A stretch of DNA of 64,000 bases, taken from the IMG/VR virus record IMGVR_UViG_3300035676_000001, one strand, 5' to 3'. A program made the position numbers and the translations under genes. Positions 2,132-16,919 of the stretch are shown piece after piece; the stretch's first letter is position 1; every line of letters begins with the position of its first letter. The DNA is from a virus (taxonomy: Duplodnaviria > Caudoviricetes). Under the pieces are notes generated by a model, which was not told the origin of the DNA, made no database searches, and saw only the letters and a list, made by a program, of their open reading frames with translations.

Positions 2132-2686
2132 TCAGCTATCTGGATATCTCGAATCGTCGTCAGCGTCACCAGTGATGCTACTTCCAGCAACTAATGTTTC
2201 AGCCTTAACTCTGAAGTTACCGTGATTATCAACATAAGTCGTAACACCGACCCAACCAGCGTGTGCTACAGCATAAGCGGCGTTTTTATTACCAACAGTT
2301 CTTCCAGCGGCGACAGTTGCTTCGGTCGTACCAACACCAAAGACAGCAGAGAATCTGTTTGATTTTACATCAGGAGCAAAGAATTGCCCATCTTCAAGAG
2401 TATACTTTGGTTTCTGATTTACTGTGTAAGCAACACCTGCAATTGCACCATTAAGAGGAATCAGGAATTGCGTTGATGCGATTGAAATTTGAGTAGCAGA
2501 GGTTACACCTGAAATTACTGCCTGACCATAAGTAGCGCCGACGCCAACTACTAAAATATCACCAGTTGAAATTCCAGCAGTTACAAAAGTTGTACCACTT
2601 CCGGTTACTACTTCAGTAGCAAGATTGATTGTTATAGTTCCTGTAAGACCCGTGCTAAAAGAATCTTTATTGCCCCAAAGAGACAT
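2132..2686 (-). CDS. Hypothetical virion protein
   Basis: G/T/V-rich beta-type sequence; HAGWV...RVKAETLVA motif; late promoter upstream. Confidence 0.75.
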   Translation of the reverse strand: MSLWGNKDSFSTGLTGTITINLATEVVTGSGTTFVTAGISTGDILVVGVGATYGQAVISGVTSATQISIASTQFLIPLNGAIAGVAYTVNQKPKYTLEDGQFFAPDVKSNRFSAVFGVGTTEATVAAGRTVGNKNAAYAVAHAGWVGVTTYVDNHGNFRVKAETLVAGSSITGDADDDSRYPDS

Positions 2687-11525: not shown

Positions 11526-14026
11526 TAGGCAAAAAATAGTTCAAGGTTTACAGTTTTTTCCACATTCCATCCAATTGCATCAAGAATGGACTTAAGTGGT
11601 TCAAGAAAACTCTTTTCAAATTGTAGTTCATAGTCGATGTATTTGTCAAGTCCAAGTTCCAAAGGAAAATCTTGAATGAAAGAAATGATATTTTCTTGAA
11701 TGATATTTGGTTTTTTGAGGTAGATAAATTTAACCTTTTCCCCATTACCAATAAGTGAATATTTATTGGTCAGTTTTTTCTCTTTCACATAGTGATTGAA
11801 CAATAATGCTCCACGAATATGAATGGGAGTTTTTGGTTGATAAATGTTCGATGATGAATAATACTTGCGGACATCAGAAGCAGTTCTTGGGAATGCAATC
11901 TGTTCTGGAGGAAGTTTTTTGAAATCAGAACGACACTTATCAATAAACTCAATCACCTCTTCTTCAGTTCCACTCATCATCAGTTTCAGACCATCCTTAA
12001 TCATCTGACGACAGGGAGCTGGAGTAGAAGACTTGACTGCCTCAATGCCCATCATCTTCAGTTTAGGTTCTTCATAACGAACACCTTCACTATCCCAGAC
12101 ATTGAGAATATAACGCTTCTTCGCAGTCCAGATTCCACGGTCAGCAATATTCTCCCGCTTCATCTGCATCTTCTGGTCATAAGCATTCACATAGTCCGCC
12201 AGTTCTTGGTAGCAACCTTCAATATGCTTTTCAAGTTCCACTTTAGCGACCTTATCAAGGAACGAAACAACGCTTTCAGTAGTTTTCTCTCTTCCCTTGT
12301 ATACAGTCTCAACCAAAGGACCCATATTAAGATAAATGGAATCGGTATCAGAAGCAATGACATAATCAACATCCTGTGTCTTGAGAACTTTATTCAGATA
12401 CTTATTAATCTTATCTTCAATCCAACGAATCGAAACCTGTCCTGAAAGAGTAATTGCTTCAGCATTTGCTAGTTTGAAATAACGGAAATACTGATTGCCG
12501 ATAGCACCATAAGCAGAGTTAAGTTGAATCTTCCTCGCCATTTGGATGTTATTGCACCTTGCAATCTCCTTTTCCAGTTCTTTGGTTTTCTTTTTCTCAT
12601 ACTCTTGTTTAGCAGCAAGCATCTTCTTTTTGTAGATAGTGCGGTCCTCATAAATCTTTTCCATCAGTTCTGGAAGAAATCCACGCACATCTTTGCGATA
12701 CATTGCACCATTAGCACAAACTGCATAATCCTTATACATTTCAAAATTAATTTGCTGATTAAGGATTTTATCTACAGTTACAGACGGATGCCTCTCATCC
12801 AAAAGAGTTTCTGGTGAGATATTGTATTGCATAATCAGGTGAGGATACAGCGAGTTCAAGTCAAAGTTCACCACCCAATCATAAACACCAGGAATCGGTT
12901 CCTTTACATAAGCACCAGCATACTTGGAATCCTTATCCGACCTTACATTCGGAGGAATTACAATATTCTTCTTTTTCAGATAGTTGTAGATAATCGTATC
13001 CCACATCCGAACCTGAGAGAACACATCAGCATAATTTGCTTTAGCGTCATACGCCATCGTCAACGCAAGTTCAATCAGTTTCATCTTGTCTTCCAAACGG
13101 TCAACAAGTTCTACGTCAATGATGTTGTATTCTACAAACTTTTGCCATCCCTTGGTATAGAAATCTTTGAAAGTATCGAATTCACTGTGGTCCAACTTTT
13201 GCTGCCCAAGTTCCACATTCGCAATATGGTCAAGGCGATAAGATTCTTGTGCCTTATAAGTAAACTTCTTATAAAGATTGAGATAGTCAAGTTGACTCAC
13301 ACCACCAATATCATAAGAGATATTTTTACGACCAGAAATGTAAATCTCATCCTCAGTCACTAGCCCCCAAGGAGACATACGCTTCATTAATTTTTCACCA
13401 AGAACACGGTCTATACGACGAACCAAATATGGAATATCATACAGTTCACTATTCCAACCAGTGATGACTTCTGGAGTATTCTCCTCAATCATCCACCAAT
13501 TGATAAAGTCATTTAACAAATCATATTCGTTAGTAAAAGAACGATACTTTACATTGCTTTGCTGATTATTGAATTTACCAAGACCCCAAGTACGAATCTG
13601 TTTCGTATTATAATCTTGAAGCGTAATCAGCAGCACTTCCTCAGCAGCACTTTCTACATCAGGGAATCCATTCTCTGATGCAACCTCAATATCGATAGTA
13701 GTTACTTTGATTTTACTAATATCAAACTTAACTTCATCTTCTGGATAATTTTCGGCAATGTATTGATAGATGTATCGGTCATTTCCAGAAATCTTAAATC
13801 CTTCTACACCATCATACTTCTTAATAAACTCTCTACATTCTCTTACAGTTCCTGGTTGAACTGCTTCAACATATTCACCGTTCAGGGTTTTATATTTCGT
13901 ATTCTTTTTTGAGGGGACAAAAAGAGTCGGGTAAAACTTCTCACGGGTCATGAAATGTTTTCCATTTTCATAACCACGAACCAAGAAGTGGTCCCCGACC
14001 ATCTGAACGTTAGTATAAAATCTCAT
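11525..14026 (-). CDS. gp43: Family B DNA polymerase
   Basis: Exo DIEV, DLNSLYP, KIQLNSAYG and SDTDS motifs; no intein or intron apparent. Confidence 0.97.
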   Translation of the reverse strand: MRFYTNVQMVGDHFLVRGYENGKHFMTREKFYPTLFVPSKKNTKYKTLNGEYVEAVQPGTVRECREFIKKYDGVEGFKISGNDRYIYQYIAENYPEDEVKFDISKIKVTTIDIEVASENGFPDVESAAEEVLLITLQDYNTKQIRTWGLGKFNNQQSNVKYRSFTNEYDLLNDFINWWMIEENTPEVITGWNSELYDIPYLVRRIDRVLGEKLMKRMSPWGLVTEDEIYISGRKNISYDIGGVSQLDYLNLYKKFTYKAQESYRLDHIANVELGQQKLDHSEFDTFKDFYTKGWQKFVEYNIIDVELVDRLEDKMKLIELALTMAYDAKANYADVFSQVRMWDTIIYNYLKKKNIVIPPNVRSDKDSKYAGAYVKEPIPGVYDWVVNFDLNSLYPHLIMQYNISPETLLDERHPSVTVDKILNQQINFEMYKDYAVCANGAMYRKDVRGFLPELMEKIYEDRTIYKKKMLAAKQEYEKKKTKELEKEIARCNNIQMARKIQLNSAYGAIGNQYFRYFKLANAEAITLSGQVSIRWIEDKINKYLNKVLKTQDVDYVIASDTDSIYLNMGPLVETVYKGREKTTESVVSFLDKVAKVELEKHIEGCYQELADYVNAYDQKMQMKRENIADRGIWTAKKRYILNVWDSEGVRYEEPKLKMMGIEAVKSSTPAPCRQMIKDGLKLMMSGTEEEVIEFIDKCRSDFKKLPPEQIAFPRTASDVRKYYSSSNIYQPKTPIHIRGALLFNHYVKEKKLTNKYSLIGNGEKVKFIYLKKPNIIQENIISFIQDFPLELGLDKYIDYELQFEKSFLEPLKSILDAIGWNVEKTVNLELFFA

Positions 14027-14280
14027 CAGGCAGTTAGTTCAAGATACTTCGTAACGATTTCTTCTTTTGGGTCAACGATAGTCAAAATACTATCAGAGTG
14101 AATCATCATCTCTCTTTGGTCAGTAACTTCTGGCCAAGGAGTAAGTTCACCTTCAGCATTAATCTGATAAGGATTAACAATGCGACAATCAGGTTCACCA
14201 AGTTCAGAAGGAACTTCTTCAATTTCGGTGACGATTACATTATCAACCTTCAGTAAAAGACACTTCACTGTTTTGGACAT
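14026..14280 (-). CDS. Conserved hypothetical protein
   Basis: ORF track; coupled to gp43; similar pattern to neighbour (PW...SDSILTIVDP). Confidence 0.75.
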   Translation of the reverse strand: MSKTVKCLLLKVDNVIVTEIEEVPSELGEPDCRIVNPYQINAEGELTPWPEVTDQREMMIHSDSILTIVDPKEEIVTKYLELTA

Positions 14281-14575
14281 TTACTTTCTCCTCATACATT
14301 TGTTTAATAGTATCAATTGGTTCCACAATGGTCACAATCCAATCTGGAGGGACTGGAATCTGAGTATCCTTTGCAAGAACAATCCAGGGTGATAGTGAAA
14401 CCTCTAGGTCTCCACTTGGATTTGCATTTTCTTCAACCAATAGAACAGTTCTACGAGTCTCAACTTTATGTGGGTTTGTGAGGAGATATCCACAAACTTT
14501 ATCGTCAGAAATCAGTTCTTTAGCATCAGAAATCACAGTTTCACCCGACTTCAAGAGTGCTAGTTTAATCGACAT
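14243..14575 (-). CDS. Conserved hypothetical protein
   Basis: MSIKLALLKSGETVI...PWI...DWIVTIVEP. Confidence 0.78.
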   Translation of the reverse strand: MSIKLALLKSGETVISDAKELISDDKVCGYLLTNPHKVETRRTVLLVEENANPSGDLEVSLSPWIVLAKDTQIPVPPDWIVTIVEPIDTIKQMYEEKVNVQNSEVSFTEG

Positions 14576-14839: not shown

Positions 14840-15274
14840 TTAGAGATAGTCCTTACGAGTATGATGCTCTGGTACTATTTTCCCAAGTACGATCCGTAAA
14901 AGTCCGTCTTCAAATGTGACTTCGCGGACTTCTGTGTCGTCGGATAAAGTCCACGCTCGTTTAAAACTTCTGCTAGCCACTCCCTTGTGGATAAACGTCC
15001 TATCCGATTCGGCATCTGCTTTTTGTCCTTCGACAAAAAGCTTTCCATATTCCGTGAAAACATTTACCTCTCCTTTCTTGAATCCTGCTAATGCGAGTTC
15101 CAAATGGGATTCGACATTATTTATTTGAATCAGGTTATAAGGAGGATAGTTCGTTGTAGTTTCGTGAAGATTAAAAAGACGATCAAAGTATTCATCCATT
15201 CCAATGCTATTGCGGGTGATTCGTTCCATCAAAGCAGGAAGATCCGCAGCAGTATACCTTGTAAGGTTAGTCAT
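14840..15274 (-). CDS. hsp20: Small heat shock protein (Hsp20/IbpA-like)
   Basis: YPPYNL, LALAGF, HKGVASRSFKRAWTL, FEDGLL motifs. Confidence 0.95.
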   Translation of the reverse strand: MTNLTRYTAADLPALMERITRNSIGMDEYFDRLFNLHETTTNYPPYNLIQINNVESHLELALAGFKKGEVNVFTEYGKLFVEGQKADAESDRTFIHKGVASRSFKRAWTLSDDTEVREVTFEDGLLRIVLGKIVPEHHTRKDYL

Positions 15275-15342
15275 TATGGTAGCTCCTTTAAAAGCGAGGT
15301 TTGATTGTGTGATCCCTATAAGGCGATCATTAATAATTTATA
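15275..15342 (-). promoter_or_regulatory. hsp20 leader: late-like promoter TATAAATT, 5' hairpin, ROSE-like SD-occluding hairpin
   Basis: CUC-G-CU-UUUAA-AG-GAG; UCGCU with bulged G pairs the Shine-Dalgarno sequence. Confidence 0.6.
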
Positions 15343-15352
15343 TTAGTTTGTA

Positions 15353-15766
15353 TTATTTTTCAAGTGTGGTTTTTACTACACTATTCTTAACAGGTCTTCC
15401 AAATGTTCCGGGAGAAAACTTCATACCTTTATTCCAAGCAGGTTTGCCCCTCATAGACATACTAGTTTTTTCTCTCGATGCTTTACTTCTTTTTGATCCA
15501 GAAGTACCTTCTCCACCATCTGTCTTATTAATCAATACACCACCACTATCTTTTTTCCCCCAAAATCTTATGAGTTCCACTTCCAAAGATAATGCTTCTT
15601 GTTCCGTTAAATTTTCTTTTATTCTTACTATTCTATCTTTATCAGGAGGTCGTTGAGCCAAACCCAACTTTCTTTTGTTTGTATCTCTAAATCCAGAACC
15701 TTTCCCAATATAATAAGGAGAATATCTATCTTCACGCAAATAAGCGTAAACGTAATACTTTTCCAT
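15353..15766 (-). CDS. GIY-YIG (Seg-like) homing endonuclease with NUMOD3 motif
   Basis: YVYAY...YYIGKG..R...E.ELI...LIN; RSKASREKTSMSMRGKPAWNKG. Confidence 0.85.
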   Translation of the reverse strand: MEKYYVYAYLREDRYSPYYIGKGSGFRDTNKRKLGLAQRPPDKDRIVRIKENLTEQEALSLEVELIRFWGKKDSGGVLINKTDGGEGTSGSKRSKASREKTSMSMRGKPAWNKGMKFSPGTFGRPVKNSVVKTTLEK

Positions 15767-15767
15767 C

Positions 15768-15853
15768 TGCTTTGTTTGTGGTTATAGTTATTTATACAAG
15801 AAAAGGGGCATTTCTGCCCCAAATCTCTTTGCTTGAATAACCACAAACAAGCA
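15768..15853 (-). promoter_or_regulatory. Long hairpin over the GIY-YIG translation start region; loop holds a terminator (about 15798-15820) and late promoter TATAAATA (15789-15796)
   Basis: Arms TGCTTGTTTGTGGTTAT / ATAACCACAAACAAAGCA (one bulge), ending 1 nt before ATG. Confidence 0.75.
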
Positions 15854-15863
15854 CTATTATTTA

Positions 15864-16406
15864 TCAACCAATAATACTATTTCTCCACTCCTCACTCATA
15901 TTCACCATAATTGCTTCTGCTGCTTCTGGAGTTTCAGCATATCCTTCATCAAGTAAGTGTGAGAGGATGATGTCGTAAATATCATAACTTTCATCAACAT
16001 CTCTTGAATTTGGAACATTTTTACCTGCTCGTCTTGCTGCCTTGTTTCCTGCTCCTCTATCTCTGGTTGGACCAGCAACAGACGCCCAATATGCCGCATT
16101 TCCAGCACGATGAGGTCCTTTTCCAACTCTTTCATCAGCAGGAGCATTCGTTCCACCACGCTTTCTTACTGGATTTTCCTTTGAACCAGTTTCACTTCTA
16201 CCGTAAAGAAGACCTAATGCTGTCTTACCTTTTTCATTATGATACTTACTGCGTGGATTTTCTCCTTTTGATTTATCACCCTTTCTAACTTCTTTATCGG
16301 CTATGGAGCGAAGTTTTGCTCTTCTTTCAGGATTTGTGATAACTTCATCAAGTTGATAAACTTCCAGATATGCTTCTTGAAGATTGCGAAGTTCTTGTGC
16401 GTCCAT
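15864..16406 (-). CDS. Hypothetical basic late protein (MDAQELRNLQEAY family)
   Basis: ORF track; TATAAATA at 16426-16433; C-terminal YDIILSHLLDEGYA...MSEEW module. Confidence 0.8.
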   Translation of the reverse strand: MDAQELRNLQEAYLEVYQLDEVITNPERRAKLRSIADKEVRKGDKSKGENPRSKYHNEKGKTALGLLYGRSETGSKENPVRKRGGTNAPADERVGKGPHRAGNAAYWASVAGPTRDRGAGNKAARRAGKNVPNSRDVDESYDIYDIILSHLLDEGYAETPEAAEAIMVNMSEEWRNSIIG

Positions 16407-16446
16407 TTTATAAATACTTTTTAAGTATTTATAATAATACTTTTAT

Positions 16447-16480
16447 AAAAAAAGACGGGTAGGAAACCCGTCCTCTTTTT
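16447..16480. terminator. Probably bidirectional terminator after regA
   Basis: GACGGGT/ACCCGTC stem flanked by A7 and CTCTTTTT. Confidence 0.75.
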
Positions 16481-16919
16481 ATTCGGCATCCTCTACCTTT
16501 TTCTTTTTAGAACCAATATTATACTTGGTTTCCAGAATCCATTCTCCTTTGTCCTTATAAGCAAGAACCTTAATTTGGTTCAGGGGAGCAATATCTTGGA
16601 TTTTTTTCAGGTCAACAATCGTGATTAGACCCCAATCTGCAAGAAGTTGGGCAATACGATTACGACGCTGAACATCATTCACGGTCAGGTTTGCGTGTTT
16701 GCCATCCAGAGCAAACAGTTCCTTAAAGTGAACGAGATAATATCTACCTTGCTTGTGTAGAATATGGCAAGACTGATAGATTTTCTTTTCCTTTCTTGAA
16801 GCAACTCCGATACGGGTCAAAGTTTCACGAACTTTCAAAAAGTCATCTGGTTCATTCAGAATGACTTCCACCATTTGATCGGGCGCCCACTTTACTTCAG
16901 GTTCTTGAACGACACTCAT
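16479..16919 (-). CDS. regA: Translational repressor RegA
   Basis: DDFLKVRETLTRIGVAS...QSCHILHKQGRYY.VHFKELF. Confidence 0.96.
   Translation of the reverse strand: MSVVQEPEVKWAPDQMVEVILNEPDDFLKVRETLTRIGVASRKEKKIYQSCHILHKQGRYYLVHFKELFALDGKHANLTVNDVQRRNRIAQLLADWGLITIVDLKKIQDIAPLNQIKVLAYKDKGEWILETKYNIGSKKKKVEDAE

Follow-up and report, generated by a model that had tools for sequence, protein, structure and literature searches.

Does the short leader of a cyanophage gene for a small heat-shock protein (sHSP) carry an RNA thermometer of the ROSE type, and how did such an element come to lie in a virus? The locus that raises this question is found in a 64-kb stretch of DNA (here called the window), the source of which is a T4-like cyanophage of the family Kyanoviridae. 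Its gene content includes DNA polymerase gp43, RegA (PF01818) and Hsp20, the last matching PF00011 (E 8.5e-12) and PHROG 432 (E 3.6e-55). By Hsp20, the nearest named relative is the freshwater Synechococcus phage DSL-LC03 (90% identity). The gene is one of 25 core genes common to all T4-like cyanophages (PMC3037559). An earlier reading of the window (the original prediction) held that a two-hairpin leader resembling ROSE elements precedes hsp20, that it is transcribed from a late-like promoter, and that temperature-gated late translation of the chaperone could tune virion assembly.

Architecture of the leader and its probable promoter

Every leader element that the original prediction had named was present, in place, in the minus-strand sequence (Table 1; square brackets within motifs mark a bulged G). 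An A/T box is followed after ~6 nt by hairpin 1, a stable 5'-proximal stem-loop, and then by a linker and hairpin 2, whose 3' strand is the Shine-Dalgarno (SD) sequence. The pairs of hairpin 2 are C15298-G15283, U15297-A15284, C15296-G15285, C15294-G15286 and U15293-A15287, and the element ends 8 nt before the hsp20 AUG. Features of ROSE-like thermometers are thus present: location in the 5' leader of an sHSP gene, a U(U/C)GCU motif opposite the SD, a bulged G, and a stable 5' hairpin.

Table 1. Positions of the leader elements and of the hsp20 gene in the window
Feature	Positions	Strand	Basis
A/T box TATAAATT, probable -10 or late-type promoter element	15335-15342	-	sequence
Hairpin 1, UGAUC[G]CC-UUAUA-GG-GAUCA, bulged G15324	15310-15329	-	MFE and centroid fold
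A/C-rich single-stranded linker CACAAUCAAAC	15299-15309	-	unpaired in all folds
Anti-SD strand CUC[G]CU, including ROSE motif UCGCU (15297-15293), bulged G15295	15293-15298	-	sequence
Hairpin 2 loop UUUAA	15288-15292	-	sequence
SD sequence AGGAG, 3' strand of hairpin 2	15283-15287	-	sequence
8-nt spacer CUACCAUA and AUG (15274-15272), outside hairpin 2	15272-15282	-	sequence, fold
hsp20 coding sequence, 144 aa, IbpA-type small heat-shock protein	14840-15274	-	Pfam HSP20 and PHROG 432

The minimum free energy (MFE) fold of the window places the SD in a different register, GCUUU/GGAGC, which also covers it. We do not take this register to be the conserved structure, since most relatives lack its closing C; a C follows AGGAG in just 99 of 241 distinct leaders.

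We then considered where the transcript begins and when it is made. The TATAAATT box matches the T4-type late consensus TATAAATA, whose usual place is ~6-7 nt 5' of the start site, at 7 of 8 positions, and a consensus scan paired TAAATT with TTGAAA (15363-15358) across a 17-nt spacer (9/12 matches). An A/T-only box lies 5-12 nt 5' of hairpin 1 in 248 distinct relatives, reading TATAAT(T) / TATAATTA, TTAAATA or TATAAATA at the same place. Such variants are compatible with a sigma-70 -10 element as well as with the late motif of cyanophages, NATAAATA (PMC2984593), and a box that alternates in this way is not callable as a late promoter. In phage P-HM2, moreover, hsp20 belongs to the middle expression cluster, with late-expressed regA just upstream (PMC5082946, S2 table). 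The late-like promoter of the original prediction is therefore unsupported, as is the link that it drew from late translation to virion assembly.

The position of the box would put the transcript start at ~15328-15330, the first bases of hairpin 1, and across relatives a start predicted at the foot of hairpin 1 gives leaders of 45-60 nt. In four metatranscriptome libraries, contigs span hsp20 and extend into its leader past the anti-SD strand, to ~15328 at most. This cover is a weak hint that transcription starts 5' of UCGCU and that UCGCU is transcribed; the data are assembled contigs with small shares, uninformative on start, strand and level, and as relatives diverge 5' of 15328, a lack of cover there carries no weight. 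The promoter box, with this weak cover, leads us to infer that the element lies within the hsp20 transcript.

The surroundings of hsp20 in the window have features of their own. The hsp20 promoter of DSL-LC03 and of most relatives comes immediately after regA and the regA terminator; in the window, two extra ORFs, 15353-15766 (-) and 15864-16406 (-), stand between regA (16479-16919) and hsp20. The first of these is homing endonuclease-like (phrog_314, E 1.7e-5; phrog_15526, E 5e-20) and ends 11 nt 5' of the TATAAATT box without a terminator, so that read-through transcripts into the hsp20 leader are possible. The interval separating these inserted ORFs holds a GC-rich terminator-like hairpin (GGGGCAGAAATGCCCC, ~15805-15820), enclosed by a perfect inverted repeat of 14 nt (TTGTTTGTGGTTAT / ATAACCACAAACAA, at 15772-15785 / 15837-15850). 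A plant microRNA call by Rfam on this palindrome (15772-15850, 32.7 bits) was below threshold and was set aside as spurious. ORF 15864-16406 has, just 5' of its start, a perfect palindrome of 12 nt (TTATAAATACTT / AAGTATTTATAA, 16408-16434) in which the T4 late-promoter consensus TATAAATA appears on both strands. Two adjacent DUF6561 paralogs, 14026-14280 (-) and 14243-14575 (-), with E-values of 1.4e-32 and 6.5e-7, lie between gp43 and hsp20. In phage P-SSM2 (L085:1-151), a few hundred nt 5' of hsp20 and before purL, there is a manA RNA (RF01745, 128 bits, above threshold), a known cyanophage RNA motif.

Conservation and covariation of the leader

The window alone was weak evidence for the element; its placement and its conservation raise it above chance. 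A search of the 64 kb for CTCGCT-N2-12-AGGAG gave a single match, where 0.11 would be expected, and 11 of 100 shuffled sequences contained one or more. The folding energy of the leader lies within two standard deviations of shuffles (z -1.2 to -1.9); since these scores are not significant, single-sequence thermodynamics cannot establish the element.

The case therefore rests on comparison with relatives. We collected 491 phage hsp20 loci from IMG/VR and sixteen named phages, chosen by protein similarity alone with seven Hsp20 queries (those of the window, S-SM1, P-SSM2, S-RIM32, ACG-2014e, S-TIM5 and DSL-LC02). An SD-containing hairpin of at least 5 bp with one bulged G was found in 488 of the 491, which bears out the prediction that the structure would be conserved in cyanophage hsp20 leaders. 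The three exceptions read CUCGCU...UGGAG and have lost the innermost pair only. A hairpin of at least 6 bp was found in 97% of distinct leaders, compared with 23% of controls in which the 5' part was shuffled; because nearly a quarter of shuffles pass, the hairpin finder is permissive, and we treat its count as supporting evidence only.

The sequence itself was also retained. CTCGCT followed within 3-9 nt by AGGAG was present in the leader of 318 of the 324 first-sampled loci, and the UUGCU form of the ROSE motif also occurs in relatives. Phages with an Hsp20 only 38-42% identical to that of the window have the same CUCGCU and AGGAG, in the same order of box, hairpin 1, A/C linker, CUCGCU, variable loop and AGGAG. 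Conservation of the leader is far above that of the protein. Between the invariant flanks of hairpin 2, the loop takes 44 different sequences of 3-9 nt in the relatives, the linker is G-poor and mostly 8-12 nt long, and the region around the AUG is not conserved.

As loop lengths vary, whole-leader alignment with MAFFT misplaced the SD, and we used instead a covariance model seeded with 14 gap-free leaders. In 100 non-redundant sources, this model made exactly one match per source, always just 5' of hsp20. In the window it gave one strong match, at the hsp20 leader (56 bits, E 1e-18). A second match at 2608-2650 (-) scored 11 bits, lies inside ORF 2132-2686, and was taken as chance.

Two departures from the common leader were noted. 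The metagenomic relative L024 (1401-1503) keeps hairpin 2 and the SD, with unrelated GC-rich sequence replacing the box and hairpin 1, which reflects either a recombination breakpoint or an assembly chimera. Phages S-CAM1 (L335) and ACG-2014e (L336) have an extra GC-rich hairpin followed by a T-run ~40 nt 5' of hairpin 1, between the promoter-like box and hairpin 1, resembling a terminator or attenuator within the leader.

In the 100-sequence alignment (A3), hairpin 1 was 100% paired, and three of its pairs had changed on both sides (G-C, U-A, A-U). Its covariation score of 0.214 compared with 0.088 in shuffles, was reached by 0 of 500 of them, and was above all slid controls. The bulged G of hairpin 1 and the two C-G pairs above it showed no variation.

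Helix 2 was 99.8% paired in the same alignment and near-invariant within the main clade, as expected for a helix with the ribosome-binding site as one of its strands; the few changes there were wobble-compatible and one-sided (CUUGCU, AGGGG). Outside the main clade, four compensated classes were found. The ACG-2014e clade, with about 80 loci, has GUC[G]CU/AGGAC; S-TIM5 and phages related to it have CCAC[G]CUU/AAGGUGG; a freshwater clade has AGAC[G]CU/AGGUCU; and a single locus (L423) has AUC[G]CU/AGGAU. S-TIM5 stands outside Kyanoviridae, has an Hsp20 30% identical to that of the window, and likewise has a bulged G in hairpin 1. Two further cases, L329 and DSL-LC02, show a shifted register. 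Throughout, the constant core of hairpin 2 is C[G]CU opposite AGG.

The third outer pair of hairpin 2, which the finder did not force, was paired in 36 of 36 distinct bulge-anchored stems, as C-G (24), G-C (11) or A-U (1). The fourth outer position was paired in 47%, about the level of chance, and helix 2 therefore ends at the third outer pair. We conclude with high confidence that the leader contains a real, selected, SD-sequestering RNA structure of the ROSE type.

The ACG-2014e clade (L336, L338-L417) shows a further peculiarity. With AGGAC as the SD strand, the annotated AUG comes 0-1 base later (AAGGACAUG), which is closer than a normal SD allows. Conservation of the N-terminal peptide MVNINWET nevertheless makes the AUG of this clade look real.

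Bacterial relatives of the leader

The Rfam models for ROSE, including ROSE and ROSE_2, gave no match to the window at E-values up to 10, in searches of 1.2 kb and of 96 nt; apart from the palindrome scored as a plant microRNA, what Rfam listed nearby was noise. Searches of relatives with ROSE_3 (RF02523) were more informative. Sub-threshold matches fell exactly on the hsp20 leader at 3 of 20 loci, and in four of five phages the best ROSE_3 match of the whole genome was the hsp20 leader (DSL-LC03, 30.6 bits; S-SM2, 24.9 bits; P-SSM2, 16.7 bits; S-SM1, 15.2 bits); the whole genome of S-TIM5 gave no match. The ROSE_3 gathering score of 43 bits was reached by no phage leader. Thus the proposed Rfam check gave nothing in the window itself and, in four relatives, a sub-threshold top match at the expected place. 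The matches in these four relatives were all full-length, and in the alignment of ROSE_3 to the S-SM2 leader both hairpins and both bulged Gs were held in common. The ROSE_3 consensus consists of two bulged-G hairpins, GGAUGCCGAAgUCGGGUCC and CUcGCuGA..UCaGgAG, and this architecture is present in the window as GAUCGCC..GGGAUC, with a covaried outer stem, and CUCGCU..AGGAG. The window leader has a covaried hairpin 1 stem and a 5-nt loop. Taken together, the motif, the bulged G, the 5' hairpin, the covariation and the sub-threshold ROSE_3 matches in relatives uphold the original view of a two-hairpin ROSE-type leader before an IbpA-type sHSP gene.

The closest known system is the ROSE_3 leader of Pseudomonas ibpA. 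Both have two hairpins in a 5' UTR of ~55-62 nt before an IbpA-type sHSP gene. They share the hairpin I core GGAUGCC...GGGUCC with its bulged G, and in both hairpin II pairs CUCGCU with AGGAG across a bulged G, with a single-stranded linker before it and the AUG outside the helix. The phage version is shorter, its hairpin I tetraloop sitting directly on the CC/GG pairs, and its hairpin II, missing the additional GA/UC pairs and G-C clamps, is consequently about half as stable. Whereas the bacterial ibpA promoter is a sigma-32 promoter, the phage leader appears, from the A/T box, to stand behind a phage promoter. We class it as a miniaturized ROSE_3-type leader, most likely under a phage promoter.

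Other sHSP leaders are less similar. Classical ROSE elements (ROSE1 of Bradyrhizobium hspA and E. coli ibpA; Rfam ROSE, ROSE_2) share U(U/C)GCU opposite the SD, a bulged G in the 3'-proximal hairpin, and control of an sHSP gene, but have three to four hairpins in longer leaders. The cyanobacterial sHSP thermometers (Synechocystis hsp17, Anabaena variabilis, Thermosynechococcus hspA) control the same type of gene in the phylum of the phage hosts, and one from Anabaena uses a ROSE-like sequence (PMC4166951). By description they are structurally diverse, single-hairpin or extended, whereas the phage leader resembles the proteobacterial two-hairpin type; the Synechococcus elongatus genome, searched as a control, gave no ROSE_3 match above the cut-off.

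We asked where the gene and its leader came from. A pattern scan of bacterial genomes gave at least 120 matches, mostly chance occurrences in GC-rich genomes, and we kept only leaders in which an SD, an AUG and an sHSP ORF come next. Among the matches listed, the same leader stands before IbpA-type sHSP genes of Pseudomonas, Stutzerimonas, Azotobacter, Ferrovibrio, Acetobacter, Roseospira and others, which belong to the alpha- (Ferrovibrio, Acetobacter, Roseospira) and gamma-proteobacteria; the Ferrovibrio leader even has the hairpin 1 loop UUAUA of the window. The window Hsp20 is 30-37% identical, near full length, to the sHSPs of leader-bearing proteobacteria (E 1e-19 to 1e-24). A scan of bacterial genomes with the window Hsp20 as protein query found one locus only, probably phage DNA in a MAG. 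Since the leader accompanies IbpA-type genes in both alpha- and gamma-proteobacteria, the phages probably received the gene and its leader together. Judged by these sequence comparisons, they look like one inherited unit from an ibpA locus of proteobacterial type, kept through the diversification of the cyanomyoviruses.

Proposed temperature control and competing explanations

The two-hairpin Pseudomonas leader (61-62 nt) is a proven thermometer, with reporter expression 4-6 fold higher at 42°C than at 25°C (Krajewski, Nagel and Narberhaus 2013, PMC3669281). On warming, its hairpin II opens and hairpin I remains closed; hairpin II is sufficient by itself, and deletion of the unpaired G locks it shut (PMC3669281). 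Being homologous, the phage leader most likely works in the same way. In the model that we propose, the ~55-nt hsp20 leader would be a short two-hairpin ROSE-type element of translational control, homologous to proteobacterial ibpA-type leaders, with the transcript probably starting at or just before hairpin 1. Hairpin 1 would aid folding, protect the 5' end, or both. Hairpin 2 (CUC[G]CU/AGGAG, with its one bulged G) would be a deliberately weak helix that, when closed, limits 30S binding, presumably by ribosome occlusion. As temperature rises it would open, so that more Hsp20 would be made in warmer or heat-stressed infected cells. By analogy with the bacterial leaders, we favor, with some reserve, the view that the phage leader acts as a thermometer within the physiological range of the host. 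That nearly every related phage keeps the leader suggests, on the same analogy, that chaperone output is probably tuned by temperature.

Thermodynamic predictions were compared with this model. The nearest-neighbor energy of hairpin 2 at 25°C was -3.9 kcal/mol in the window versus -7.5 kcal/mol in the Pseudomonas-type leader, and the model melting points were 66°C versus 80°C for the bacterial hairpin. With G15295 deleted in silico, the energy at 25°C fell to -7.2 kcal/mol and the SD was fully closed. The window SD was predicted to be mostly paired from 10 to 50°C, its accessibility rising from 0.24 to 0.31, compared with 0.13 to 0.48 for the validated Pseudomonas-type leader; because the nearest-neighbor model is poor on the non-canonical pairs of ROSE elements, this flat profile is not decisive. 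Across 127 distinct versions of hairpin 2, model melting points spanned 48-94°C. A lower set-point than that of the bacterial leader would fit hosts living at 15-30°C.

The little change in predicted accessibility between 10 and 50°C makes a constitutive brake a serious rival. The structure would then be selected, but not as a thermometer: it would hold Hsp20 at a low fixed dose and supply an mRNA-stabilizing 5' stem-loop, as a module that came with the gene and is no longer matched to the thermal range of the host. Aquatic hosts experience small temperature swings, and hairpin 2, at -3.9 kcal/mol (25°C), is a weak helix with nearly flat predicted SD accessibility; such a helix might stand mostly open at ambient temperature, so that it would slow translation mildly and constitutively. 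For Pseudomonas ibpA, Krajewski et al. suggest that hairpin I may shield the transcript from degradation (PMC3669281). Yet a simple brake has no need of an exact bulge geometry, and the bulged G that weakens the helix is kept in 488 of 491 loci through several changes of register. Moreover, the same architecture has been thermoresponsive wherever it was tested (PMC3669281). We therefore regard a brake without temperature response as unlikely.

A second alternative invokes control in trans rather than temperature, with CUCGCU and the GCC/GGG core of hairpin 1 as binding sites for RegA, a translational repressor of the phage, or for a host factor. The gene order invites this idea, as regA lies directly 5' of hsp20 in most relatives, and the invariant Y-G-C-Y/R-G-G of both hairpins suggests a constraint beyond a plain helix. 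The element is nevertheless present in S-TIM5, S-SM1 and P-TIM40, in which regA is not adjacent. T4 RegA binds around the AUG, the very region that is not conserved in the phage hsp20 loci. The same motifs, furthermore, occur on bacterial ibpA leaders that are thermometers in E. coli reporters and in vitro with no added factors, and we know of no RegA homolog in the bacterial genera bearing the leader. We consider this explanation very improbable.

A DNA-level motif (a Pho box, another operator, or part of the promoter), as once predicted for the S-PM2d stretch ATTCAAACTCGCTTAAATA 5' of hsp20 (PMC10976474), can be discounted almost entirely, because the element lies 3' of the promoter box and its pairing-preserving compensatory changes point to RNA. 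The Pho-box reading in particular is ruled out by published binding data: PhoB did not bind the S-PM2d fragment, and hsp20 was not phosphate-regulated (PMC10976474). If the leader is an RNA element as we propose, that published reading of the same motif, which had already failed its binding test (PMC10976474), is corrected.

Returning to the thermometer, a conserved ROSE-type leader would mean that Hsp20 synthesis is gated after transcription, most likely by temperature, as in the bacterial systems. A full-text literature search found no paper linking a ROSE-type element, or any RNA thermometer, with phage hsp20. The original statement that no phage example had been characterized thus stands for ROSE-type elements in the searchable literature, but not for RNA thermometers at large, the first of which ever described was that of phage lambda cIII (PMC4166951). 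There too, the structure of a phage mRNA leader sets translation by temperature (PMC4166951); the lambda cIII leader differs in having an unrelated structure with two alternative folds, a ribosome-binding site that is open at low temperature, and no chaperone gene. If our reading is correct, the hsp20 leader would stand as the first viral thermometer of the ROSE type, and as a case of a cis-regulatory RNA that moved with its gene from bacteria to phages. It would bear on how temperature affects the success of some of the most abundant viruses of lakes and oceans, and leader mutants locked open or locked closed would offer a handle on the role of Hsp20 in infection.

A more speculative extension is that the cyanomyoviruses have made the element a thermosensor of their own, with hairpin 2 adjusted in stability, from one clade to the next, to the range of temperatures in the habitat. 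The register of the element has shifted several times, one bulged G always being kept. We put this forward as a tentative possibility; were it true, Hsp20 dose and infection success would track water temperature.

Finally, both hairpins have the same core, Y-[G]-C-Y opposite R-G-G (15322-15325/15314-15316 in hairpin 1 and 15293-15296/15285-15287 in hairpin 2). The neighboring pairs covary, but the core itself does not vary across the ibpA leaders of proteobacteria and the cyanophage leaders. A plain 5' stabilizer would need no such retention of sequence in hairpin 1. The shared bulged-G core may, as a less likely additional layer, dock a factor common to both hairpins or make a tertiary contact, and so be more than plain helix.
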